Source: Escherichia coli (lineage in GTDB: Bacteria; Pseudomonadota; Gammaproteobacteria; Enterobacterales; Enterobacteriaceae). From it: a stretch of DNA of 64,000 nucleotides. Both the position numbers and the translations under genes were made by a program. Shown piece after piece: positions 15,889 through 37,323 of the stretch. Position 1 is the stretch's first letter. Each line of letters starts with the position of its first letter. The notes beneath the pieces are model-generated. The model was not told the DNA's origin. It ran no database searches and saw nothing but the letters and a program-made list of their open reading frames with translations. The stretch lies in NCBI RefSeq assembly GCF_044324875.1, contig NZ_CP172185.1; one strand, 5' to 3'.

Positions 15889-17250
15889 ATGTTTGATAAT
15901 TTAACCGATCGTTTGTCGCGCACGCTGCGCAATATCAGTGGCCGTGGACGCCTCACTGAAGACAACGTAAAAGATACGCTGCGCGAAGTGCGCATGGCGC
16001 TGCTGGAGGCGGACGTCGCTCTGCCGGTAGTGCGTGAGTTTATCAATCGCGTAAAAGAGAAAGCGGTTGGTCATGAAGTTAATAAGAGCCTGACGCCGGG
16101 GCAGGAGTTCGTCAAAATCGTCCGTAACGAACTGGTTGCGGCGATGGGCGAAGAGAACCAGACCCTGAACCTGGCTGCGCAACCGCCTGCGGTCGTGCTG
16201 ATGGCAGGCCTGCAAGGTGCCGGTAAAACAACCAGCGTTGGTAAACTCGGTAAGTTCCTGCGCGAGAAGCACAAGAAGAAAGTGCTGGTGGTTTCTGCCG
16301 ACGTCTATCGCCCGGCGGCAATCAAACAGCTTGAGACGCTGGCTGAGCAGGTGGGCGTTGATTTCTTCCCTTCTGATGTTGGTCAGAAGCCGGTTGATAT
16401 TGTTAACGCGGCGTTGAAAGAAGCCAAACTGAAATTCTACGACGTGCTGCTGGTGGATACCGCTGGTCGTCTGCACGTTGACGAAGCGATGATGGACGAG
16501 ATCAAACAAGTCCATGCGTCGATTAACCCGGTTGAAACCCTGTTTGTGGTTGACGCCATGACCGGTCAGGATGCGGCCAATACGGCAAAAGCATTTAATG
16601 AAGCGTTACCGCTTACCGGCGTAGTGTTGACCAAAGTGGACGGCGATGCCCGCGGCGGTGCGGCGCTCTCTATTCGTCACATCACTGGCAAACCGATCAA
16701 GTTCCTCGGTGTTGGCGAGAAAACTGAGGCGCTGGAGCCGTTCCATCCGGACCGCATCGCGTCGCGTATTCTCGGCATGGGCGACGTACTGTCGCTGATC
16801 GAAGATATCGAAAGCAAAGTTGACCGCGCGCAGGCAGAGAAATTAGCCAGCAAGCTGAAAAAAGGCGACGGCTTCGATCTCAACGACTTCCTTGAGCAGC
16901 TGCGGCAGATGAAAAATATGGGCGGCATGGCCAGCTTGATGGGCAAACTGCCGGGCATGGGGCAGATCCCGGATAACGTCAAGTCGCAGATGGACGATAA
17001 AGTGCTGGTGCGTATGGAAGCCATCATCAACTCAATGACGATGAAAGAGCGCGCTAAGCCAGAAATCATCAAAGGTTCACGTAAGCGTCGTATCGCCGCC
17101 GGTTGCGGGATGCAGGTACAGGACGTTAACCGCCTTCTGAAGCAGTTCGACGACATGCAGCGCATGATGAAGAAAATGAAGAAGGGCGGAATGGCGAAGA
17201 TGATGAGAAGCATGAAAGGGATGATGCCGCCGGGATTTCCTGGTCGCTAA
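15889..17250 (+). CDS. ffh: Signal recognition particle protein Ffh
   Basis: 453 aa; GTPase motif GLQGAGKTT and Met-rich C-terminal M domain. Confidence 0.95.
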   Translation: MFDNLTDRLSRTLRNISGRGRLTEDNVKDTLREVRMALLEADVALPVVREFINRVKEKAVGHEVNKSLTPGQEFVKIVRNELVAAMGEENQTLNLAAQPPAVVLMAGLQGAGKTTSVGKLGKFLREKHKKKVLVVSADVYRPAAIKQLETLAEQVGVDFFPSDVGQKPVDIVNAALKEAKLKFYDVLLVDTAGRLHVDEAMMDEIKQVHASINPVETLFVVDAMTGQDAANTAKAFNEALPLTGVVLTKVDGDARGGAALSIRHITGKPIKFLGVGEKTEALEPFHPDRIASRILGMGDVLSLIEDIESKVDRAQAEKLASKLKKGDGFDLNDFLEQLRQMKNMGGMASLMGKLPGMGQIPDNVKSQMDDKVLVRMEAIINSMTMKERAKPEIIKGSRKRRIAAGCGMQVQDVNRLLKQFDDMQRMMKKMKKGGMAKMMRSMKGMMPPGFPGR

Positions 17251-17420
17251 TCGGCCTGGCTTGTTTGCCATTTTGGCACCGGGGTGTGCTCGTCATCCTC
17301 ACGTACTGCGTGTACGCTCCGGTGACTGCGCGCACTCCGGCACCAAACTGGCTGCACCGCCGACGGCCTTTTACAGCAGAGTTAGCAACTGTTGATTGCA
17401 ATTTCCGCAAAAATGAGTAA

Positions 17421-17747
<327 letters not shown>

Positions 17748-17765
17748 TCTGTCACGGTGGTCATG

Positions 17766-18314
17766 ATGAGCAAACAACTCACCGCGCAAGCACCTGTTGA
17801 TCCCATCGTTTTGGGAAAAATGGGTTCGTCTTACGGTATTCGTGGGTGGCTCAGAGTGTTTTCTTCCACCGAAGACGCCGAAAGCATTTTTGACTATCAG
17901 CCCTGGTTTATCCAGAAGGCGGGTCAGTGGCAGCAAGTCCAGCTGGAAAGCTGGAAGCACCACAATCAGGACATGATCATCAAGCTGAAAGGCGTTGACG
18001 ATCGTGATGCGGCGAACCTACTGACGAATTGTGAAATTGTCGTGGATTCATCGCAGCTGCCTCAGCTTGAAGAGGGTGACTACTACTGGAAAGACCTGAT
18101 GGGCTGCCAGGTAGTAACCACTGAAGGCTACGATCTCGGTAAAGTCGTCGATATGATGGAAACCGGATCTAATGATGTTCTCGTCATTAAGGCAAACCTG
18201 AAAGATGCGTTTGGTATCAAGGAACGTCTCGTACCGTTCCTCGATGGGCAGGTTATCAAGAAAGTCGATCTCACTACTCGTTCAATCGAAGTAGATTGGG
18301 ATCCTGGTTTTTAA
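17766..18314 (+). CDS. rimM: Ribosome maturation factor RimM
   Basis: 182 aa starting [10 protein letters not shown]; part of the rpsP-rimM-trmD-rplS operon. Confidence 0.9.
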
Positions 18315-18344
18315 ACCACCGGATAAACGGTAAAAGACGGCGCT

Positions 18345-19112
18345 ATGTGGATTGGCATAATTAGCCTGTTTCCTGAAATGTTCCGCGCAATTACCGATTA
18401 CGGGGTAACTGGCCGGGCAGTTAAAAATGGCCTGCTGAGCATCCAGAGCTGGAGTCCTCGCGACTTCACGCATGACCGGCACCGTACCGTGGACGATCGT
18501 CCTTACGGCGGCGGACCGGGGATGTTAATGATGGTGCAACCTTTGCGGGACGCCATTCATGCAGCAAAAGCCGCGGCGGGTGAAGGCGCAAAGGTGATTT
18601 ATCTGTCACCACAGGGACGCAAGCTTGATCAAGCGGGCGTCAGCGAACTGGCAACGAATCAAAAATTGATTCTGGTGTGCGGTCGCTACGAAGGTATAGA
18701 TGAGCGCGTGATCCAAACCGAAATTGACGAAGAATGGTCAATCGGCGATTACGTTCTCAGTGGTGGTGAGTTACCAGCAATGACGCTGATTGACTCCGTT
18801 TCCCGGTTTATTCCGGGAGTACTGGGACATGAAGCCTCGGCAACGGAAGATTCCTTTGCTGAAGGATTGCTGGATTGCCCGCACTATACGCGGCCTGAGG
18901 TGTTAGAAGGGATGGAAGTTCCGTCAGTGTTACTGTCGGGCAACCATGCCGAGATACGTCGCTGGCGTTTGAAACAGTCGCTGGGCCGTACCTGGCTTAG
19001 AAGACCTGAACTTCTGGAAAACCTGGCTCTGACTGAAGAGCAAGCAAGGTTGCTGGCGGAGTTCAAAACGGAACACGCACAACAGCAACATAAACATGAT
19101 GGGATGGCGTAA
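18345..19112 (+). CDS. trmD: tRNA (guanine37-N1)-methyltransferase TrmD
   Basis: 255-aa [16 protein letters not shown]... Confidence 0.95.
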
Positions 19113-19150
19113 GCCCCCGAGATATCAGTTTACCCAGGATAAGAGATTAA

Positions 19151-19501
<351 letters not shown>

Positions 19502-19530
19502 GGTTTCGCTTAAGCGACATCCTGTTAAGA

Positions 19531-19560
19531 AGGGCTGGCCAATTGGCTGGCCCTTTTTTT
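19531..19560 (+). terminator. Rho-independent terminator of the rpsP-rplS operon
   Basis: GC-rich hairpin GGGCTGGCCAATTGGCTGGCCC followed by a run of 7 T. Confidence 0.6.
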
Positions 19561-19577
19561 ATCTGTTTGCTCGTGTT

Positions 19578-20060
19578 TTAAGGGGTAGTAATCACCACTG
19601 CGACGCGGCGGTTCTCGGCGCGGCCCTGGGCGGTCTTGTTACTGGCTATGGGATATTTTTTTCCTAAACCCTGTGTGGTGAGATTGCTGCGCGGAATTTG
19701 TCCACCCATAGCCCATGCATCGGCCACGACATTCGCCCGTTTCAATGATAAGGCTTCGTTGTAACTGTCTTCACCATAGTTGTCGGTGTGTCCATCCATA
19801 CGGGCATGCGTTAGCCCTGTCGAGGCCAATTTGGCTGCCATGGTTTGGATCTGTTGCTGGCTTTCCGGGAGCAATTTGTAGTCATTTTTTGCGAACAGAA
19901 TGGCATCTGATAAGCCCAACGACCAGTCGCCGGCGGATTCAGTAAATCCATAAGATTGCATAGCGGCGACTTGCTCAGGAGTAAACTTTCCCTGAGGGGA
20001 CTGGCAGCCAGTCAGTATTAGCGAGGTGAAAATCAGGGGTACTACCAGGTGCTTTATCAT
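19578..20060 (-). CDS. yfiB: OmpA-family outer membrane lipoprotein YfiB
   Basis: 160 aa with lipobox ...LTGCQS. Confidence 0.9.
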   Translation of the reverse strand: MIKHLVVPLIFTSLILTGCQSPQGKFTPEQVAAMQSYGFTESAGDWSLGLSDAILFAKNDYKLLPESQQQIQTMAAKLASTGLTHARMDGHTDNYGEDSYNEALSLKRANVVADAWAMGGQIPRSNLTTQGLGKKYPIASNKTAQGRAENRRVAVVITTP

Positions 20061-20075
20061 ATCGATATATCCTTG

Positions 20076-21302
20076 TTATCTCACCAGCTTTTCGGCACGC
20101 TGGTGTTTGGCCTGATACATATTGTGATCGGCCAGCTCTTGTAATTTTTCCGCAGAGGCATGCTCAATGGTCATCGCGTAACCAATGCTTAATGTCATGG
20201 TGGTCTGATGACCATTATGAAGATCAAACGGGCGATTAAAGATTTGTGTCAGTGCTGAGCAAATCCGCTGTACTTCGGATTCCGACTGTACACCAAAGAG
20301 GACCATCGCAAATTCATCGCCGCCTATGCGGTATGCTTTATGTTGCAGCCCGCCAAATTCAGCTAACCGTTTTGCTACCTCAATCAAGACACGATCGCCC
20401 GTCGCATGACCCCAGGTATCATTGATATATTTGAAATTATCGCCATCAAGAAATAGTAACGCCGACGTTTTTCGGGCGTCGGAACTGCTCATCAACGTGT
20501 TGATACCGCTACGAAACGCTGCGCGGTTAGCCAGCCCGGTTAATGGGTCATGTAGCGCGGTACGTAGAAGCTGCGCATTTTTGGCCTGTAAACGAAGCTG
20601 CCACTCTTCCATTTCATCCAGCAGACTGTTGAAGTCGAGTGCGAAGCGGTGAAATTCTGCAATGCGTTCTTCCGAAACTCGTCGGGAAAAATTGCGGTTG
20701 GAACGTACGTCATGCACGACATCGGTGATATTTTTCAATGCTTCCACCAGGCCATTGTGCAAATGGCGGGTGAGGGTAATTGCGATGCCTGATGCCAGCA
20801 GAATGCAGGCGGTCAGGACAGCGAGCGAAAACCAGATAAAATGGCTGATTGAACTGTCGCGAGCGGTTAAGCGTACTTCGCCAATGGTTTCACCATTGTG
20901 ACGAATCGGCTGAATGATGGGGGCAGGGAAGAGCCAGTGGCTTATGAAATTGCTTAAAGTATCGCCTGGATCCTTACGGGTGTAATGCCAGGATGCCAGA
21001 ATATTTTGCTGCTTATCACGTACTTCTGCAGTTGAAAATTGCCCTTGCTGGCCCAGCGCTGCCAGTGTTTCAGTTGCTGCAGGGCCATCGGCAAAAACGA
21101 CAGCTGCTTCCAGACTGTAAGTCATTGTTGCTGCTGTCAGTGCCAGGTTTTTTTGCGCGTACTGTTTCAGGGTCAGCACCGAGGTCACGGAAAGCAGCAA
21201 CCAGATCAGCATCATAGTGATAAATATGCTGGTCATACTGATGTTGCGTAATGCTCTTTTAAACGTGGGGCGCTTATTAAGAGAATTATCGTTATCCATC
21301 AT
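20076..21302 (-). CDS. dgcN: Diguanylate cyclase DgcN (YfiN): periplasmic sensor, HAMP, GGDEF
   Basis: 408 aa; GGDEF signature RIGGDEF present. Confidence 0.9.
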
Positions 21303-21810
21303 TTTTCTTCCGTGCGAGCATCAAGACATCCGGGTTGACCTTTACACCGCTACGCGATAAGGCATCCAGGTTTACGGCAAATCTGACGTCATTATTGTGG
21401 ATGATCAGACAAAAGGCGCTACCAATAATGCACTCGGTATTTTGTTCGGCAATTAATAATAACGCCTTTGACGGATATTGTTCGGTTAATTCCATCTGGA
21501 ATGTCGGTGACTCGTTGCCAAAATAAAAACCATTGCAGCCTGAAATCATCGCCTCTTGTTGAGTGTGAATGATGACAGGCAAATAAGGCAAAGATGTCGC
21601 GGCATTCTCTTGTAGGGCGGTACTAAAACGTGAAGATGAAAAGATACATAACTTTGGTGGCCCTGATAGCGCAGGCCAGCGGGTGTAACTGACAATACCG
21701 GAAACCATCATACGCACGTTTTTCGCAACGTCAGAAGGCTCCTGAGCGAGTATTGGTGCTCCCGTCAGCAGGAGAATCAGCAGTAAGAACAGTCGGTGAG
21801 AAAAACGCAT
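21292..21810 (-). CDS. yfiR: Periplasmic repressor YfiR of DgcN
   Basis: 172 aa with signal peptide; overlaps the dgcN start by 11 nt. Confidence 0.88.
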
Positions 21811-21956
21811 TCAGGGATCCTCACCATCTTCGCTCGAAATGCATCGATATTTTTTCAGAATGCTCATTAAAATATCATCCTTTCATGCGGTCGTCATCAA
21901 TGTGAGAAATAAAACATAATGAGTAAAATCTCATGCTTAATTTATTTGGGGGGTAA

Positions 21957-22322
21957 TTAATTTAATCGTATTGTGCTGGCATTTTCATCAGCCCCTTTTC
22001 GCCATACTTCATGCAGTTGGCTGGCATTTTCAACATTATTGCAGCTGGCAGGAAAGCTTTTACCAGAAAGTCCTCGGGCATAAGTAAAATCGGTCTGGCA
22101 AGTTTTCTTTTGTCCTTCGGCATATCCTTTAAGGTATAGACCGCGATCCGCCTGTGAATCGCTAAATGCATCGTCATCTTTTATGGCGCTGCCCGATATC
22201 GCATCTTCCATACCGACATCATACCAGTCGGTGCTGGTCAAGGTTGGCGCGTGAGTATAAGGATCAATCTGACATCCGCTAACCAGTAAAGCCAACAAGG
22301 GGGCGATAAACTTTTTCATCAT
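21957..22322 (-). CDS. yfiL: Lipoprotein YfiL
   Basis: 121 aa starting MMKKFIAPLLALLVSGCQ. The ORF track start at 22340 is an upstream extension. Confidence 0.8.
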   Translation of the reverse strand: MMKKFIAPLLALLVSGCQIDPYTHAPTLTSTDWYDVGMEDAISGSAIKDDDAFSDSQADRGLYLKGYAEGQKKTCQTDFTYARGLSGKSFPASCNNVENASQLHEVWRKGADENASTIRLN

Positions 22323-22359
22323 TTCTTTCTCCTTTTTCAAAGCATAGCGGATTGTTTTT

Positions 22360-22440
22360 AAAGGAGGTGTAAATTTATTTGTACGAAATAAGCATCAAAA
22401 GCGCGAGTAAATTGTTCCTGTAAAGAAAAATGTACGAAAT
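22360..22440 (+). promoter_or_regulatory. aroF promoter region with TyrR-box-like palindromes
   Basis: TGTAAATTTATTTGTACA and TGTAAAGAAAAATGTACG resemble the TyrR box TGTAAA-N6-TTTACA; aroF is TyrR-repressed in E. coli. Confidence 0.45.
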
Positions 22441-22530
22441 ATGGATTGAAAACTTTACTTTATGTGTTATCGTTACGTCATCCTCGCTGAGGATCAACTA
22501 TCGCAAACGAGCATAAACAGGATCGCCATC

Positions 22531-23601
22531 ATGCAAAAAGACGCGCTGAATAACGTACATATTACCGACGAACAGGTTTTAATGACTCCGGAACAACTGA
22601 AGGCCGCTTTTCCATTGAGCCTGCAACAAGAAGCCCAGATTGCTGACTCGCGTAAAACCATTTCAGATATTATCGCCGGGCGCGATCCTCGTCTGCTGGT
22701 AGTATGTGGTCCTTGTTCCATTCATGATCCGGAAACTGCTCTGGAATATGCTCGTCGATTTAAAGCCCTTGCCGCAGAGGTCAGCGATAGCCTCTATCTG
22801 GTAATGCGCGTCTATTTTGAAAAACCCCGTACCACTGTCGGCTGGAAAGGGTTAATTAACGATCCCCATATGGATGGCTCTTTTGATGTAGAAGCCGGGC
22901 TGCAGATCGCGCGTAAATTGCTGCTTGAGCTGGTGAATATGGGACTGCCACTGGCGACGGAAGCGTTAGATCCAAATAGCCCGCAATACCTGGGCGATCT
23001 GTTTAGCTGGTCAGCAATTGGTGCTCGTACAACGGAATCGCAAACTCACCGTGAAATGGCCTCCGGGCTTTCCATGCCGGTTGGTTTTAAAAACGGCACC
23101 GACGGCAGCCTTGCAACGGCAATTAACGCTATGCGCGCCGCCGCCCAGCCGCACCGTTTTGTTGGCATTAACCAGGCAGGTCAGGTTGCGTTGCTACAAA
23201 CTCAGGGGAATCCGGACGGACATGTGATCCTGCGCGGTGGTAAAGCGCCGAACTATAGCCCTGCGGATGTTGCGCAATGTGAAAAAGAGATGGAACAGGC
23301 GGGACTGCGCCCGTCTCTGATGGTAGATTGCAGCCACGGTAATTCCAATAAAGATTATCGCCGTCAGCCTGCGGTGGCAGAATCCGTGGTTGCTCAAATC
23401 AAAGATGGTAATCGCTCCATTATTGGTCTGATGATTGAAAGTAATATCCACGAAGGTAATCAGTCTTCCGAACAGCCGCGTAGCGAAATGAAATACGGCG
23501 TGTCTGTAACCGATGCCTGCATTAGCTGGGAAATGACCGATGCCTTACTGCGTGAGATCCATCATGATCTCAACGGGCAGCTGACGGCTCGCGTGGCTTA
23601 A
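22531..23601 (+). CDS. aroF: DAHP synthase, Tyr-sensitive
   Basis: 356 aa starting [24 protein letters not shown]. The ORF track start at 22462 is an upstream extension. Confidence 0.95.
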
Positions 23602-23611
23602 GAGGTTTATT

Positions 23612-24733
23612 ATGGTTGCTGAGTTGACCGCATTACGCGATCAAATTGATGAAGTCGATAAAGCGCTGCTGAATTTATTAGCGAAGCGTCTGGAACTGGT
23701 TGCTGAAGTGGGCGAGGTGAAAAGCCGCTTTGGACTGCCTATTTATGTTCCGGAGCGCGAGGCATCTATGTTGGCCTCGCGTCGTGCAGAGGCGGAAGCT
23801 CTGGGTGTACCGCCAGATCTGATTGAGGATGTTTTGCGTCGGGTGATGCGTGAATCTTACTCCAGTGAAAACGACAAAGGATTTAAAACACTTTGTCCGT
23901 CACTGCGTCCGGTGGTTATCGTCGGCGGTGGCGGTCAGATGGGACGCCTGTTCGAGAAGATGCTGACACTATCGGGTTATCAGGTGCGGATTCTGGAGCA
24001 ACATGACTGGGATCGAGCGGCTGAAATTGTTGCCGATGCCGGAATGGTGATTGTTAGTGTGCCAATCCACGTTACTGAGCAAGTTATCGGCAAATTACCG
24101 CCTTTACCGAAAGATTGTATTCTGGTCGATCTGGCATCAGTGAAAAATGGGCCATTACAGGCCATGCTGGCGGCGCATGATGGTCCGGTGCTGGGGCTAC
24201 ACCCGATGTTCGGTCCGGACAGCGGTAGCCTGGCAAAGCAAGTTGTGGTCTGGTGTGATGGACGTAAGCCGGAAGCATACCAATGGTTTCTGGAGCAAAT
24301 TCAGGTCTGGGGCGCTCGGCTGCATCGTATTAGCGCTGTCGAGCACGATCAGAATATGGCGTTTATTCAGGCTCTGCGCCACTTTGCTACTTTTGCTTAT
24401 GGGCTGCACCTGGCAGAAGAAAATGTTCAGCTTGAGCAACTTCTGGCGCTCTCTTCGCCGATTTACCGCCTTGAACTGGCGATGGTTGGGCGACTGTTTG
24501 CTCAGGATCCGCAGCTTTATGCCGACATTATTATGTCGTCAGAGCGTAATCTGGCGTTAATCAAACGTTACTATAAGCGTTTCGGCGAGGCGATTGAGTT
24601 GCTGGAGCAGGGCGATAAGCAGGCGTTTATTGACAGTTTCCGCAAGGTGGAGCACTGGTTCGGCGATTACGCACAGCGTTTTCAGAGTGAAAGCCGCGTG
24701 TTATTGCGTCAGGCGAATGACAACCGCCACTAA
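23612..24733 (+). CDS. tyrA: Bifunctional chorismate mutase / prephenate dehydrogenase (T-protein)
   Basis: 373-aa [40 protein letters not shown]... Confidence 0.95.
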
Positions 24734-24775
24734 TAATCCAGTGCCGGGTGATTCACATCATCCGGCACCTTTTCA

Positions 24776-25936
24776 TCAGGTTGGATCAACAGGCACTACG
24801 TTCTCACTTGGGTAACAGCCCAATACCTTCATCGAACGGGTGATGTCCCCTAACTCTTTCAATGCTTTTTGCATTTCCGCTGATTCAAGATTGGCCTGAA
24901 TATCCAGATAAAACATCTCTTCCCATGGATTACCGTGAATCGGGCGTGACTCCAGACGGGTCATAATCAGATTGTGGTTGCGCAGTACCAGCAACGCTTC
25001 AACCAGCGCACCAGCTTGTTGCCCGGTCGCCATTAACAACGTCGTTTTCGCTGGAACCTGGTCAGACACGTTAATGGCTTTACGTGCCAACACCACAAAT
25101 CGGGTGAAGTTTTGTCGCTGATTCGCTTCAATACGCTCCAGTACCTGCAAACCGTACAAAGTGCCGCCAGCTTCGCTTCCCAACGCAGCAACATGCGGTG
25201 ATTTTGCCTGTGCAACCTTTTCCATTGCCGCAGACGTACTTTCGGTATATTCAATCTTCCAGTGCGGATAACGATTAAGGAATTTGCTGCATTGCTGGAA
25301 TGGCTGCGGATGGCTGTAGACCGTATTGATGGTGGATAAATCAGTAGTGCCGGAGACCAACAAACAATGGTCGATAGTTAACGTCATCTCGCCAACAATC
25401 GACAAACTGGTATGTTGTAGCAGATCGTAAACGTCATTTATGGCACCGGAGCTGGTATTTTCAATCGGTACGACGGCATAGTCGGCCTGGCCGGTTTCCA
25501 CCTGATTAAAAATATCGGCAAATTTGGCGCAGCCACTTTCAATGAATTGCTCAAAGTGACGGGCAGCATACTGGCGCGCCGCAAGATGGGAATAAGAACC
25601 TTTGGGGCCGAGAAAAGCGATGCGTGCTGAGTGCGGATTAATTTTATTGAGATGTTGCTGGAGCAAAGCCTGCTGAGTTAATACGGAATCTTCAATGATG
25701 AGCTGGAACAGGCGAGTAATGTAATGGGCGTCCAGATGGTGCGCTTTACCGAGCGTAATTAATCTTTCCAGCAAATCGCGTTCACGATCAATATCACGTA
25801 CCGGGCGATGCGAGAGCAGTTTGGCTTTTCCCACCTCAACGGCCAGTTCGCGCCGCTCTGCCAGTAATGCTAATAATTTTTCATCCAGCGCGCTGATTTT
25901 CTCACGCAGCGCCAGTAACGGGTTTTCCGATGTCAT
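24776..25936 (-). CDS. pheA: Bifunctional chorismate mutase / prephenate dehydratase (P-protein)
   Basis: 386-aa [42 protein letters not shown]... Confidence 0.95.
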
Positions 25937-25959
25937 AGTGTTGCCTTTTTTGTTATCAA

Positions 25960-25990
25960 TAAAAAAGGCCCCCCGATTTGGGAGGCCTTA
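25960..25990 (-). terminator. pheA attenuator terminator hairpin
   Basis: On the minus strand: AAGGCCTCCCAAATCGGGGGGCCTTTTTTATTG, a GC-rich stem followed by a U-tract, between pheL and pheA. Confidence 0.6.
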
Positions 25991-26035
25991 TTGTTCGTCT
26001 TCGCATTCTGTTTCACACGACGAAACGCCTCCCAT

Positions 26036-26083
26036 TCAGGGGAAGGTAAAAAAGAATGCGAAGAAAAACGGTGTGTGTTTCAT
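26036..26083 (-). CDS. pheL: phe operon leader peptide (15 aa, 7 Phe)
   Basis: Minus strand ATGAAACACACACCGTTTTTCTTCGCATTCTTTTTTACCTTCCCCTGA encodes [15 protein letters not shown]. Under 60 aa, so absent from the ORF track. Confidence 0.85.
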   Translation of the reverse strand: [15 protein letters not shown]

Positions 26084-26186
26084 GTTTGTTTCCTTAAGTG
26101 ACTTTAGTACAGTACCCGTACTGTTTTCACGCTGTCAACAAAAAACGCGCCCGAAGGCGCGTTGGCGATACACTCAATATAAAGGA

Positions 26187-26582
<396 letters not shown>

Positions 26583-26798
26583 TCAAAATGTGTGATGGAA
26601 ATCTCATAATTTTGTCACTTTTTGTCAACGAATCTTTTTTGTGAGAAATCGCAGGAAGAGGTGTTTTTTTACTTGAGGAATATCTCAAAGCGAGCCATAT
26701 TTGATGAGATCGATAGTGACTAAATCGCTTCAGTTTCACAACTAACAGAATAAAAAAACGGCAGCTCAAGGGCTGCCGTTTTGTGTTTCAGGTTTTTG

Positions 26799-27536
26799 TT
26801 ATGTATTGCTGCTGTTTGCAGCGATGATTTTCGCTACTTTTTCAGCTTGCGCATTCATCTGCATCTGACGGTATGCATTTTCCATCAGCGGCAGCGCATC
26901 ACGCGTAGCCTGGGTATCCGGGTAGTCGCGCAACATGCCTTCTACGCGGTTAACGACGGCAACCCATGCACCACGTTCTGTATAGTACTCGGCAACGGAG
27001 TATTCATATTTCGCCAGACGATCTTTCAGGAATACCAGACGTTTGGTGGCATCGGTGGTGTACTGACTGTTCGGATAGCCGCGCACCAGTTTGGAAAAGT
27101 CACTAAACGCAGCTCGTGCATGTTGAGGATCGCGATCGCTACGGTCAACGCCAAAGAACCCTTGCAGTGCACTGTCATCGAGCGCCATATTGGTCAGGCC
27201 ACGCATGTACATGACATAATCGATATTCGGATGGGTCGGGTTAAGGCGAATAAAACGATCGATGGCAGCCTGTGCTAACGGCAAATCGGCGTTTTTATAG
27301 TAGGCGTAGATGAGATCCAGCTGCACCTGCTGCGAATACGGACCAAACGGATAGCGATTATCTAACGCTTCCAGTTGCGTTATTGCCTGTCTCCAGTTAC
27401 CGTCCTGCAGCTTTTGTTGTGCAGTCGCGTAAATTTCATTTGGCGGATTATCAGGTACTTCTTCCTTTGACCCCGAGCAACCCGCCAAAAACAGGCTTAG
27501 TGTGGCGGCTGCCACCAGATATTTCATGCGCGTCAT
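26799..27536 (-). CDS. bamD: Outer membrane protein assembly factor BamD (YfiO) lipoprotein
   Basis: 245 aa with lipobox [12 protein letters not shown] and TPR-like content. Confidence 0.95.
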
Positions 27537-27670
27537 GACGTTTTGACTTTCCTCAAAATGTAATACGGGAGATTCTCTGTTCCTGCTCCCGGTTAAGACC
27601 AGCTACAATAGCACACTATATTAAACGGCAAAGCCGTAAAACCCCAACGATAAACGAAGAAGCAGTATAT

Positions 27671-28651
27671 ATGGCACAACGAGTACAGCTCACTGCAACG
27701 GTGTCCGAAAACCAACTCGGTCAACGCTTAGATCAGGCTTTGGCCGAAATGTTCCCGGATTATTCACGTTCGCGGATAAAAGAATGGATCCTCGACCAGC
27801 GCGTGCTGGTTAACGGCAAAGTTTGTGATAAGCCGAAAGAAAAAGTATTGGGTGGCGAGCAGGTGGCCATCAACGCTGAGATTGAAGAAGAAGCGCGTTT
27901 TGAACCGCAGGATATCCCGCTGGATATCGTCTATGAAGATGAAGATATCATCGTCATTAATAAACCACGCGACCTGGTGGTACATCCTGGCGCGGGTAAC
28001 CCGGATGGTACGGTACTGAATGCGTTACTTCATTACTATCCGCCCATTGCCGATGTACCGCGTGCGGGCATCGTCCATCGTCTGGATAAAGACACCACCG
28101 GCCTGATGGTTGTGGCAAAAACCGTTCCGGCTCAGACGCGTTTAGTCGAATCTTTGCAACGGCGTGAAATTACTCGTGAGTATGAAGCGGTGGCAATTGG
28201 TCATATGACCGCTGGCGGTACAGTAGATGAACCAATCAGCCGCCACCCGACCAAACGTACTCACATGGCGGTGCATCCCATGGGCAAACCGGCGGTCACT
28301 CACTATCGCATCATGGAACACTTCCGTGTGCACACGCGTCTGCGGTTGCGTCTGGAAACTGGACGTACGCACCAGATCCGCGTGCATATGGCCCATATCA
28401 CTCATCCGCTGGTGGGCGATCCGGTTTATGGTGGCCGTCCGCGTCCGCCAAAAGGTGCTTCGGAAGCGTTTATCTCCACGCTGCGTAAATTTGACCGCCA
28501 GGCGCTTCATGCAACCATGCTGCGTCTTTATCACCCGATCTCCGGTATCGAAATGGAATGGCATGCGCCTATTCCACAAGATATGGTGGAGCTGATTGAG
28601 GTGATGCGCGCCGATTTCGAAGAGCATAAAGATGAAGTGGACTGGTTATGA
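27671..28651 (+). CDS. rluD: 23S rRNA pseudouridine(1911/1915/1917) synthase RluD
   Basis: 326 aa; S4 domain and motif HRLDKDTTGLMVVAKT. Confidence 0.95.
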   Translation: MAQRVQLTATVSENQLGQRLDQALAEMFPDYSRSRIKEWILDQRVLVNGKVCDKPKEKVLGGEQVAINAEIEEEARFEPQDIPLDIVYEDEDIIVINKPRDLVVHPGAGNPDGTVLNALLHYYPPIADVPRAGIVHRLDKDTTGLMVVAKTVPAQTRLVESLQRREITREYEAVAIGHMTAGGTVDEPISRHPTKRTHMAVHPMGKPAVTHYRIMEHFRVHTRLRLRLETGRTHQIRVHMAHITHPLVGDPVYGGRPRPPKGASEAFISTLRKFDRQALHATMLRLYHPISGIEMEWHAPIPQDMVELIEVMRADFEEHKDEVDWL

Positions 28652-29379
28652 GTAAGCTGATTGTCCCGCAGTGGCCGCTGCCAAAAGGTGTTGCGGCCTG
28701 TAGCTCTACTCGTATCGGCGGCGTGAGCGTGCCCCCGTATGACTCGCTCAACCTCGGTGCCCATTGTGGCGATAACCCGGATCACGTTGAGGAGAATCGC
28801 AAGCGACTTTTTGCTGCGGGCAATTTGCCTTCAATACCGGTCTGGCTTGAGCAGGTACACGGCAAAGATGTGCTTAAGCTTACTGGCGAACCTTATGCCT
28901 CAAAACGAGCAGATGCCTCTTATAGCAACACGCCGGGCACGGTTTGCGCAGTGATGACTGCCGACTGCCTCCCCGTGCTGTTTTGCAATCGAGCGGGAAC
29001 GGAAGTCGCCGCCGCTCATGCTGGCTGGCGTGGACTGTGCGCAGGCGTGCTGGAAGAGACGGTTTCCTGTTTTGCTGATAATCCGGAAAATATTCTCGCC
29101 TGGTTAGGGCCGGCAATTGGTCCACGCGCGTTCGAAGTGGGGGCGGAGGTTCGCGAGGCGTTTATGGCAGTAGACGCCGAAGCGAGTACAGCTTTCATTC
29201 AGCATGGTGATAAGTATCTGGCGGACATTTATCAGCTTGCCCGGCAGCGTCTGGCGAGAGTTGGTATTGAACAAATTTTCGGCGGCGACCGTTGTACATA
29301 TACGGAAAATGAGACTTTCTTCTCTTATCGTCGCGACAAGACCACCGGTCGTATGGCAAGTTTCATTTGGCTGATATAA
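28648..29379 (+). CDS. yfiH: Purine nucleoside phosphorylase / laccase-domain protein YfiH (PgeF)
   Basis: 243 aa; 4-nt overlap with rluD. Confidence 0.9.
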   Translation: MSKLIVPQWPLPKGVAACSSTRIGGVSVPPYDSLNLGAHCGDNPDHVEENRKRLFAAGNLPSIPVWLEQVHGKDVLKLTGEPYASKRADASYSNTPGTVCAVMTADCLPVLFCNRAGTEVAAAHAGWRGLCAGVLEETVSCFADNPENILAWLGPAIGPRAFEVGAEVREAFMAVDAEASTAFIQHGDKYLADIYQLARQRLARVGIEQIFGGDRCTYTENETFFSYRRDKTTGRMASFIWLI

Positions 29380-29441
29380 CCTAAAGAATCAAGACGATCC
29401 GGTACGCGTGATTTTCTTTTCACATTAATCTGGTCAATAAC

Positions 29442-29470
29442 CTTGAATAATTGAGGGATGACCTCATTTA
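29442..29470 (+). promoter_or_regulatory. Putative sigma-32 promoter of clpB
   Basis: CTTGAAT at 29442-29448 and CCTCATTTA at 29462-29470, about 40 nt upstream of the clpB ATG. Confidence 0.5.
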
Positions 29471-29508
29471 ATCTCCAGTAGCAACTTTGATCCGTTATGG
29501 GAGGAGTT

Positions 29509-32082
29509 ATGCGTCTGGATCGTCTTACTAATAAATTCCAGCTTGCTCTTGCCGATGCCCAATCACTTGCACTCGGGCACGACAACCAATTCATCGAACC
29601 ACTTCATTTAATGAGCGCCCTGCTGAATCAGGAAGGGGGTTCGGTTAGTCCTTTATTAACATCCGCTGGCATAAATGCTGGCCAGTTGCGCACAGATATC
29701 AATCAGGCATTAAATCGTTTACCGCAGGTTGAAGGTACTGGTGGTGATGTCCAGCCATCACAAGATCTGGTGCGCGTTCTTAATCTTTGCGACAAGCTGG
29801 CGCAAAAACGTGGTGATAACTTTATCTCGTCAGAACTGTTCGTTCTGGCGGCACTTGAGTCTCGCGGCACGCTGGCCGACATCCTGAAAGCAGCAGGGGC
29901 GACCACCGCCAACATTACTCAAGCGATTGAACAAATGCGTGGAGGTGAAAGCGTGAACGATCAAGGTGCTGAAGACCAACGTCAGGCTTTGAAAAAATAT
30001 ACCATCGACCTTACCGAACGAGCCGAACAGGGTAAACTCGATCCGGTGATTGGTCGTGATGAAGAAATTCGCCGTACCATTCAGGTGCTGCAACGTCGTA
30101 CTAAAAATAACCCGGTACTGATTGGTGAACCAGGCGTCGGTAAAACTGCCATCGTTGAAGGTCTGGCGCAGCGTATCATCAACGGCGAAGTGCCGGAAGG
30201 GTTGAAAGGCCGCCGCGTACTGGCGCTGGATATGGGCGCGCTGGTGGCTGGGGCGAAATATCGCGGTGAGTTTGAAGAACGTTTAAAAGGCGTACTTAAC
30301 GATCTTGCTAAACAGGAAGGCAACGTCATCCTGTTTATCGACGAATTACATACCATGGTCGGCGCGGGTAAAGCAGATGGCGCAATGGACGCCGGAAACA
30401 TGCTGAAACCGGCGCTGGCGCGTGGTGAATTGCACTGCGTAGGTGCCACGACGCTTGACGAATATCGCCAGTACATCGAAAAAGATGCTGCGCTGGAACG
30501 TCGTTTCCAGAAAGTGTTTGTTGCCGAGCCTTCTGTTGAAGATACCATTGCGATTCTGCGTGGCCTGAAAGAACGTTACGAGCTGCACCACCATGTGCAA
30601 ATTACTGACCCGGCAATTGTTGCAGCGGCGACGTTGTCACATCGCTACATTGCTGACCGTCAGCTGCCGGATAAAGCCATCGACCTGATCGATGAAGCAG
30701 CATCCAGCATTCGTATGCAGATTGACTCAAAACCAGAAGAACTCGACCGACTCGATCGCCGTATCATCCAGCTCAAACTGGAACAACAGGCGTTAATGAA
30801 AGAGTCTGATGAAGCCAGTAAAAAACGTCTGGATATGCTCAACGAAGAACTGAGCGACAAAGAACGTCAGTACTCTGAGTTAGAAGAAGAGTGGAAAGCA
30901 GAGAAGGCATCGCTTTCTGGTACGCAGACCATTAAAGCGGAACTGGAACAGGCGAAAATCGCTATTGAACAGGCTCGCCGTGTGGGGGACCTGGCGCGGA
31001 TGTCTGAACTGCAATACGGCAAAATCCCGGAACTGGAAAAGCAACTGGAAGCCGCAACGCAGCTCGAAGGCAAAACTATGCGTCTGTTGCGTAATAAAGT
31101 GACCGACGCCGAAATTGCTGAAGTGCTGGCGCGTTGGACGGGGATTCCGGTTTCTCGCATGATGGAAAGCGAGCGCGAAAAACTGCTGCGTATGGAGCAA
31201 GAGCTGCACCATCGCGTTATTGGTCAGAACGAAGCGGTTGATGCGGTATCTAACGCTATTCGTCGTAGCCGCGCAGGGCTTGCTGACCCGAATCGCCCGA
31301 TTGGTTCATTCCTGTTCCTCGGCCCAACGGGTGTGGGGAAAACTGAGCTTTGTAAGGCGCTGGCGAACTTTATGTTTGATAGCGACGAGGCGATGGTCCG
31401 TATCGATATGTCCGAGTTTATGGAGAAACACTCGGTGTCTCGTCTGGTTGGTGCGCCTCCGGGATATGTCGGTTATGAAGAAGGTGGCTACCTGACCGAA
31501 GCGGTGCGTCGTCGTCCGTATTCCGTCATCCTGCTGGATGAAGTGGAAAAAGCGCATCCGGATGTCTTCAACATTCTGTTGCAGGTACTGGATGATGGGC
31601 GTCTGACTGACGGGCAGGGGAGAACGGTCGACTTCCGTAATACGGTTGTCATTATGACCTCTAACCTCGGTTCCGATTTGATTCAGGAACGCTTCGGTGA
31701 ACTGGATTATGCGCACATGAAAGAGCTGGTGCTCGGTGTGGTAAGCCATAACTTCCGTCCGGAATTCATTAACCGTATCGATGAAGTGGTGGTCTTCCAT
31801 CCGCTGGGTGAACAGCACATTGCGTCGATTGCGCAGATTCAGTTGAAACGTCTGTACAAACGTCTGGAAGAACGTGGTTATGAAATCCACATTTCTGACG
31901 AGGCGCTGAAACTGCTGAGCGAGAACGGTTACGATCCGGTCTATGGTGCACGTCCTCTGAAACGTGCTATCCAGCAGCAGATCGAAAACCCGCTGGCACA
32001 GCAAATACTGTCTGGTGAATTGGTTCCGGGTAAAGTTATTCGCCTGGAAGTTAATGAAGACCGGATTGTCGCCGTCCAGTAA
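29509..32082 (+). CDS. clpB: Chaperone ClpB (Hsp100 disaggregase)
   Basis: 857 aa starting [18 protein letters not shown]; two AAA+ modules ([18 protein letters not shown]). The ORF track start at 29497 is 4 codons upstream. Confidence 0.95.
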
Positions 32083-32196
32083 TGATAAAACGAGCCCTTC
32101 GGGGCTCGTTTTTGTCTATAAATTAGACGGAAAAGACTATATTTAAGATGTTTTGCCTGAAAAATGAGCGAACGATAAAGTTTTTATATTTTTCGC

Positions 32197-32224
32197 TTGT
32201 CAGGCCGGAATAACTCCCTATAAT
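32197..32224 (+). promoter_or_regulatory. rRNA operon promoter P1
   Basis: TTGTCA (32197-32202), 16-nt spacer, TATAAT (32219-32224); AT-rich UP-element-like sequence upstream. Confidence 0.7.
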
Positions 32225-32313
32225 GCGCCACCACTGACACGGAACAACGGCAAACACGCCGCCGGGTCAGCGGGGTTCTCCTGAGAATCTCAACAGAGAA
32301 AAGCAAAAAATGC

Positions 32314-32341
32314 TTGACTCTGTAGCGGGAAAGCGTATTAT
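32314..32341 (+). promoter_or_regulatory. rRNA operon promoter P2
   Basis: TTGACT (32314-32319), 16-nt spacer, TATTAT (32336-32341). Confidence 0.7.
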
Positions 32342-32522
32342 GCACACCCCGCGCCGCTGAGAAAAAGCGAAGCGGCACTGCTCTTTAACAATTTATCAGA
32401 CAATCTGTGTGGGCACTCGAAGATACGGATTCTTAACGTCGCAAGACGAAAAATGAATACCAAGTCTCAAGAGTGAACACGTAATTCATTACGAAGTTTA
32501 ATTCTTTGAGCATCAAACTTTT

Positions 32523-34064
<1,542 letters not shown>

Positions 34065-34149
34065 CCTTAAAGAAGCGTACTTTGCAGTGCTCACACAGAT
34101 TGTCTGATAGAAAGTGAAAAGCAAGGCGTCTTGCGAAGCAGACTGATAC

Positions 34150-34225
34150 GTCCCCTTCGTCTAGAGGCCCAGGACACCGCCCTTTCACGGCGGTAACAGG
34201 GGTTCGAATCCCCTAGGGGACGCCA
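34150..34225 (+). tRNA. gltW: tRNA-Glu (UUC) in the 16S-23S spacer
   Basis: GTCCCCTTCGTCTAGAGGCCCAGGACACCGCCCTTTCACGGCGGTAACAGGGGTTCGAATCCCCTAGGGGACGCCA, 76 nt. Confidence 0.95.
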
Positions 34226-34418
34226 CTTGCTGGTTTGTGAGTGAAAGTCGCCGACCTCAATATCTCAAAACAGACTGTTAAGTCTTGTTTGAGATATTTG
34301 CTCTTTAAAAATCTGGATCAAGCTGAAAATTGAAACACTGAACAACGAAAGTTGTTCGTGAGTCTCTCAAATTTTCGCAACACGATGATGAATCGAAAGA
34401 AACATCTTCGGGTTGTGA

Positions 34419-37323
<2,905 letters not shown>

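Follow-up and report, generated by a model that had tools for sequence, protein, structure and literature searches.

Introduction

Regulation of pheA by transcription attenuation depends on ribosome stalling at the phenylalanine codons of a leader peptide gene, pheL, on competing downstream stems and on a terminator. For the leader of E. coli K-12, the alternative pairing that forms the antiterminator is established in the literature.

The coding sequence of pheL itself has been compared across species. In the study of 53 pheL genes by Gurvich et al. (2011; PMC3082878), a CCC_UGA group is defined by a UUC_CCC_UGA end together with a proline codon at -10, that is, codon 5. The nucleotide sequence of the group is described there as highly conserved, and its members as varying everywhere but at the AUG start and at the Phe codons that serve regulation. 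The same paper reports a high level of +1 frameshifting at UUC_CCC_UGA, dependent on the nascent peptide. Frameshifting was still at the wild-type level when all residues ahead of the last three codons had been scrambled, and the proline at -10 alone had an effect, a two-fold one.

Here, we have analysed the pheL gene in a stretch of 64,000 nucleotides of E. coli DNA, referred to below as the window. A sequence-only reading of the window had pointed out that codon 4 of pheL is ACA (Thr) where it expected ATA (Ile) as in K-12, and had considered that this may be a natural allele or that its expectation for K-12 may be wrong.

Results

The pheL coding sequence lies at 26036-26083 on the minus strand, has 15 codons and a TGA stop, and reads ATG AAA CAC ACA CCG TTT TTC TTC GCA TTC TTT TTT ACC TTC CCC TGA. 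At the matching place, E. coli genomes carry the annotation 'pheA operon leader peptide PheL' (WP_001386991.1). Translation of this segment confirmed that codon 4 (26072-26074, minus strand) is ACA and encodes threonine; in the alignment with K-12 MG1655 its middle base, 26073, is C in the window and T in K-12, where the codon is ATA (Ile). Phenylalanine accounts for seven of the 15 residues, at positions 6-8 (TTT TTC TTC), 10-12 (TTC TTT TTT) and 14 (TTC), so that all the Phe codons that the sequence-only reading had described as intact are indeed present. That reading was also right that pheL is missing from the track of open reading frames on account of its length, since a short frame of this kind is dropped only by length cut-offs. 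With ACC TTC CCC TGA at its end (and hence TTC_CCC_TGA) and CCG, the proline at -10, as codon 5, the window's pheL falls in the CCC_UGA group. A full-text literature search for either of the two allelic PheL peptide strings found no paper.

The gene is embedded in a Phe leader RNA (Rfam RF01859; 25959-26084, minus strand), an attenuator made up of the leader ORF, a long 1:2 stem with pause hairpins, and a terminator. The match to the Phe_leader model spans model positions 1-125 of 125 and scores 132.2 bits (E = 9.4e-25) against a curated gathering score of 55 bits; this full-length match rules out pheL as a chance ORF. The predicted fold of the leader is far more stable than that of shuffled sequence (z = -5.97). 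The intrinsic terminator (25959-25989, minus strand) is a stem-loop, AAGGCCTCCC-AAATC-GGGGGGCCTT, followed by a T run, and it is situated between the leader ORF and pheA. Its stem at 25989-25965, where a terminator hairpin had been placed at 25960-25990 by the earlier reading, has 10 pairs, 7 of them G-C, enclosing a 5-base loop, and runs into TTTTTT. The terminator helix is also part of the Rfam consensus structure and of the minimum-energy fold, both of which represent the terminated form (1:2 plus 3:4) only. The leader sequence 3' of codon 4 is the same as that of K-12 in the MG1655 alignment. Given the single-base difference from the K-12 leader, we infer that read-through into pheA would be under Phe-dependent control.

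The gene under control of the attenuator, pheA (24776-25936, minus strand), is a 386-residue ORF that is annotated in the matching E. coli DNA as bifunctional chorismate mutase/prephenate dehydratase, and it starts 23 bases past the end of the leader match on the same strand. The upstream neighbour raiA (26187-26528, minus strand; an ORF of 113 residues) is outside the attenuator. In 5425 of 5426 complete E. coli genomes, the corresponding region is annotated in the order raiA, Phe leader region with pheL, pheA. In Escherichia albertii, Huaxiibacter and Pseudenterobacter, the small RNA RyfD (Rfam RF02768, 111-125 bits) is found about 3.3 kb from the Phe leader, and its recurrence there in several genera points to conserved synteny around pheL.

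Between raiA and pheL, a putative promoter for pheL-pheA can be read by eye at 26109-26138 on the minus strand, with TTGACA at 26138-26133, an 18-base spacer and TACTGT at 26114-26109. A sigma-70 consensus scan of 25800-26300 called no promoter, because the second hexamer of this candidate matches at only 3 of 6 positions. Just upstream of the promoter region, raiA is followed by a strong terminator hairpin (26144-26163, minus strand) of 8 pairs, 6 of them G-C, and then TTTTTT. The equivalent 3' region of raiA in K-12 is annotated as the small RNA RaiZ (b4805), and the window is identical to K-12 there.

The expectation that K-12 carries isoleucine at this position was correct: codon 4 of MG1655 pheL (NC_000913.3, b2598, NP_417089.1) is ATA. 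Gurvich et al. (PMC3082878) describe the pheL of Shigella flexneri as identical to that of K-12. The probability that K-12, too, has Thr4 is virtually nil, and the second of the two options falls away. The earlier reading had allowed for a reference pheL that also encodes threonine, in which case the finding would be unremarkable; K-12 has isoleucine, and the difference is unremarkable anyway. Over the 321 bases at 25900-26220, the window differs from MG1655 at three places. Within the 126-base leader the base in codon 4 alone differs (ACA in the window, ATA in K-12), the A run before the start of pheA has six A in the window and five in K-12, and an early pheA codon is CGT in the window and CGA in K-12.

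To place codon 4 within the species, we used 61-base queries with the variable base at their centre and counted the genomes that match exactly, out of 5422 complete E. coli genomes in which a match was obtained; in a query of this length, one mismatch lowers the identity to 98.4% and puts a genome outside the '>=99%' band. The window's form (ACA, Thr4) was matched exactly in 3560 of the 5422 genomes, O157:H7 strains and strain 042 among them, and the K-12 form (ATA, Ile4) in 1383 (26%), which include K-12 derivatives. A third form, WP_001700969.1, with threonine at residue 4 and isoleucine at residue 13, accounted for 428. By subtraction, about 51 genomes have none of the three 61-base forms, and their residue 4 is mixed; strain N96, sampled from the genomes that match neither the ACA nor the ATA form, has the synonymous ACG (Thr). 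Altogether, threonine is found at residue 4 of PheL in at least 3988 of the 5422 complete genomes (74%). The Thr4 of the window is thus the majority natural allele of E. coli, and the isoleucine of K-12 is the minority. Of the two options left by the sequence-only reading, a natural allele is the one that holds, as RefSeq genomes carry Thr4 (ACA) under the PheL accession WP_001386991.1, and the allele is already known in the sense that it is annotated in thousands of genomes.

The third allele was seen in E. coli strains 4012, SL124 and ACN001, and its change in codon 13 falls within a pyrimidine-rich segment, which is paired in the stems of the attenuator. A different kind of variant is found in E. 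coli PCN061 (NZ_CP006636.1; L009 171-218), in which the pheL stop is changed from TGA to AGA, the leader ORF is extended, and the gene is listed in RefSeq as a pseudogene (incomplete). The loss of the stop may be a real leader variant or a sequencing error; a ribosome that reads further into the leader could alter attenuation in this strain.

A sequencing or assembly error, or a mutation private to the source strain, would also give rise to ACA at codon 4. No complete E. coli genome matches the window at 100% over the 321 bases at 25900-26220, as would be the case if the window carried such a change. However, 3560 independent complete genomes share the 61-base stretch around codon 4 without a mismatch, RefSeq lists the peptide under an accession of its own, and the uniqueness of the 321 bases comes from a combination of variants that are individually common. 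We consider the probability of an error or private mutation to be negligible.

Over the 321 bases, the 11 haplotypes most similar to the window have G at 26105, a position at which the window shares A with K-12. This A/G polymorphism (minus strand) is located between the putative -10 hexamer and the start of pheL, near the likely transcription start. A 61-base query centred on 26105 had an exact match in 4699 of 5421 genomes, and the window's A is the majority state. We also considered whether the missing 321-base match is unusual in itself and rejected this, as the A at 26105 is in the majority, the 61-base core around codon 4 is widespread, and the haplotype is a reshuffling of common variants. 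On a larger scale, window positions 16000-36000 (clpB, an rRNA operon, ffh, dgcN, pheA and others) reach a best identity of 99.2% among 5426 complete RefSeq E. coli genomes, with 24 records reaching 99%. A best identity of only 99.2% over these 20 kb suggests that the source strain is not closely represented in the collection; it could be from a sparsely sampled lineage of E. coli or, the collection being one without Shigella, from Shigella.

Codon 4 was compared across species by scanning a single genome from each species for the pattern ATGAAACAY NNN CCN TTY TTY TTY GCN TTY TTY TTY NNN TTY CC. The scan returned 28 loci and is non-exhaustive: the representative of E. coli itself, Salmonella and E. 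fergusonii are absent from its results. Threonine is encoded in Escherichia albertii (ACT), Escherichia sp. MOD1-EC7003 (ACA), Citrobacter amalonaticus (ACC), Huaxiibacter chinensis (ACA), Pseudenterobacter timonensis (ACG) and Enterobacteriaceae RIT714 (ACG). Leucine is found in most Pantoea, one Erwinia and two Enterobacter; valine in Phytobacter, one Enterobacter and one MAG; and glutamine in Pantoea eucrina and one MAG. Isoleucine was found in none of the 28 species representatives returned by this non-exhaustive pattern scan. The Rfam consensus has a weakly conserved 'aua' at codon 4, which indicates that isoleucine does occur elsewhere in the family. Across Enterobacterales, codon 4 is free to vary (Thr, Leu, Val, Gln, Ile), and in leaders that are otherwise identical no position varies more; in the 28-species scan, the remainder of the peptide is fixed by the search pattern.

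Five of the outgroups with threonine (E. albertii, the cryptic-clade Escherichia MOD1-EC7003, C. amalonaticus, Huaxiibacter and Pseudenterobacter) were matched to the Phe_leader model, and all five gave full-length matches of 115-137 bits. By parsimony over these few outgroups, Thr4 is probably the ancestral state in Escherichia and the ATA of K-12 a derived C-to-T transition (ACA to ATA), which K-12 would share with about a quarter of E. coli genomes.

To see how the two alleles may differ at the RNA level, we compared their predicted structures. The variable base corresponds to Rfam model position 12, in the 5' part of the leader where model positions 1-15 are unpaired in the structure line. 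Both alleles are predicted to adopt one and the same minimum-energy structure, at -52.2 kcal/mol, and truncated nascent transcripts of 75, 95 and 115 nt likewise have minimum energies that do not differ between the alleles. In the ensemble of the full leader, the pairing probability of the variable base is 0.04 with C and 0.29 with U, a modest difference between two low values. The earlier reading had guessed that regulation is probably unaffected. Its guess fits the unpaired base, the equal minimum energies and the free variation of the codon, and it stands as a probability rather than as a proof: on these predictions, regulation would be unchanged between the Thr and the Ile allele.

The two codons also differ in usage. 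In the long ORFs of the window, ATA occurs 5.2 times and ACA 8.1 times per 1000 codons, and ATA is the rarest isoleucine codon, making up 8% of all Ile codons. Moreover, decoding of AUA needs a minor, lysidine-modified tRNA-Ile2. As ATA is rarer than ACA, translation of the first leader codons may differ slightly in its kinetics between the alleles.

These properties of ATA would speak for a functional role of the Thr/Ile difference, either by altering the speed of early elongation (rare AUA vs ACA) or by making a shortage of a different amino acid stall the ribosome ahead of the Phe codons. The outcome would be a lineage-specific shift in basal read-through, or 'superattenuation' of pheA. On the general model of attenuation, a ribosome stalled at codon 4 would free segment 1 to pair and so favour termination. 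Against such a role, codon 4 is the freest position in the otherwise identical leaders of the 28 species, which argues against selection; both alleles are common in E. coli; their predicted structures are identical; and a single non-regulatory codon is expected to add little beside seven Phe codons. Taken together, we regard a functional effect of the Thr/Ile difference as improbable. If either allele is kinetically special, it would be the ATA of K-12 and not the ACA of the window.

Discussion

The locus in the window is very probably a standard pheL-pheA transcription attenuator of E. coli that carries the commonest natural leader allele, Thr4, with Thr/Ile at this position being an effectively neutral polymorphism. 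In such an attenuator, when charged tRNA-Phe is scarce, the ribosome would stall at the Phe codons, the antiterminator would form and RNA polymerase would read into pheA; when tRNA-Phe is plentiful, the ribosome would run through, and the GC-rich terminator hairpin and its U run would stop transcription. Since codon 4 precedes the regulatory Phe codons and is not part of any stem, a change from Thr to Ile would be expected to leave this mechanism as it is, and it is on this ground that we infer the difference to be neutral.

An effect of residue 4 on +1 frameshifting at CCC_UGA was also considered, and we rejected it because, in the experiments of Gurvich et al. (PMC3082878), frameshifting withstood the scrambling of upstream residues; the codon that did matter there, the -10 proline, is intact in the window.

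It is conceivable, though highly improbable, that the derived AUA at position 4 of the K-12 leader slightly alters ribosome loading, or couples pheA attenuation to the supply of isoleucine or tRNA-Ile2. If this were true, the strain from which the textbook account of pheA attenuation derives would differ subtly in basal pheA expression from the roughly 74% of E. coli genomes that, like the window, encode threonine (ACA) there.

With a standard attenuator and an effectively neutral polymorphism as the preferred reading, the Thr4 result matters little. The difference from K-12 is real, and it represents an ordinary, majority and probably ancestral state at a position that varies freely. We would like to point out that K-12 does not always have the consensus sequence of E. 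coli, and that a mismatch to K-12 alone is no sign of anything unusual.

How the window's pheL relates to the described forms can be summarized as follows. The PheL of WP_001386991.1 (Thr4; e.g. strains 06-00048, Z1323HEC0462 and N96) has a peptide identical to that of the window and is the same allele. The form WP_001700969.1 likewise has Thr4 and shares the locus and the architecture, but it has isoleucine for threonine at residue 13 (ACC to ATC) and a base change past the stop (TGAATG to TGAAAG), neither of which is found in the window. K-12 pheL has in common with the window the locus raiA-pheL-pheA, the length, the seven Phe codons, the UUC_CCC_UGA end and the terminator. Compared with the CCC_UGA group as characterized by Gurvich et al. 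(PMC3082878), the window's pheL shows no difference, and its variation at codon 4 falls among the positions at which the group itself is variable.
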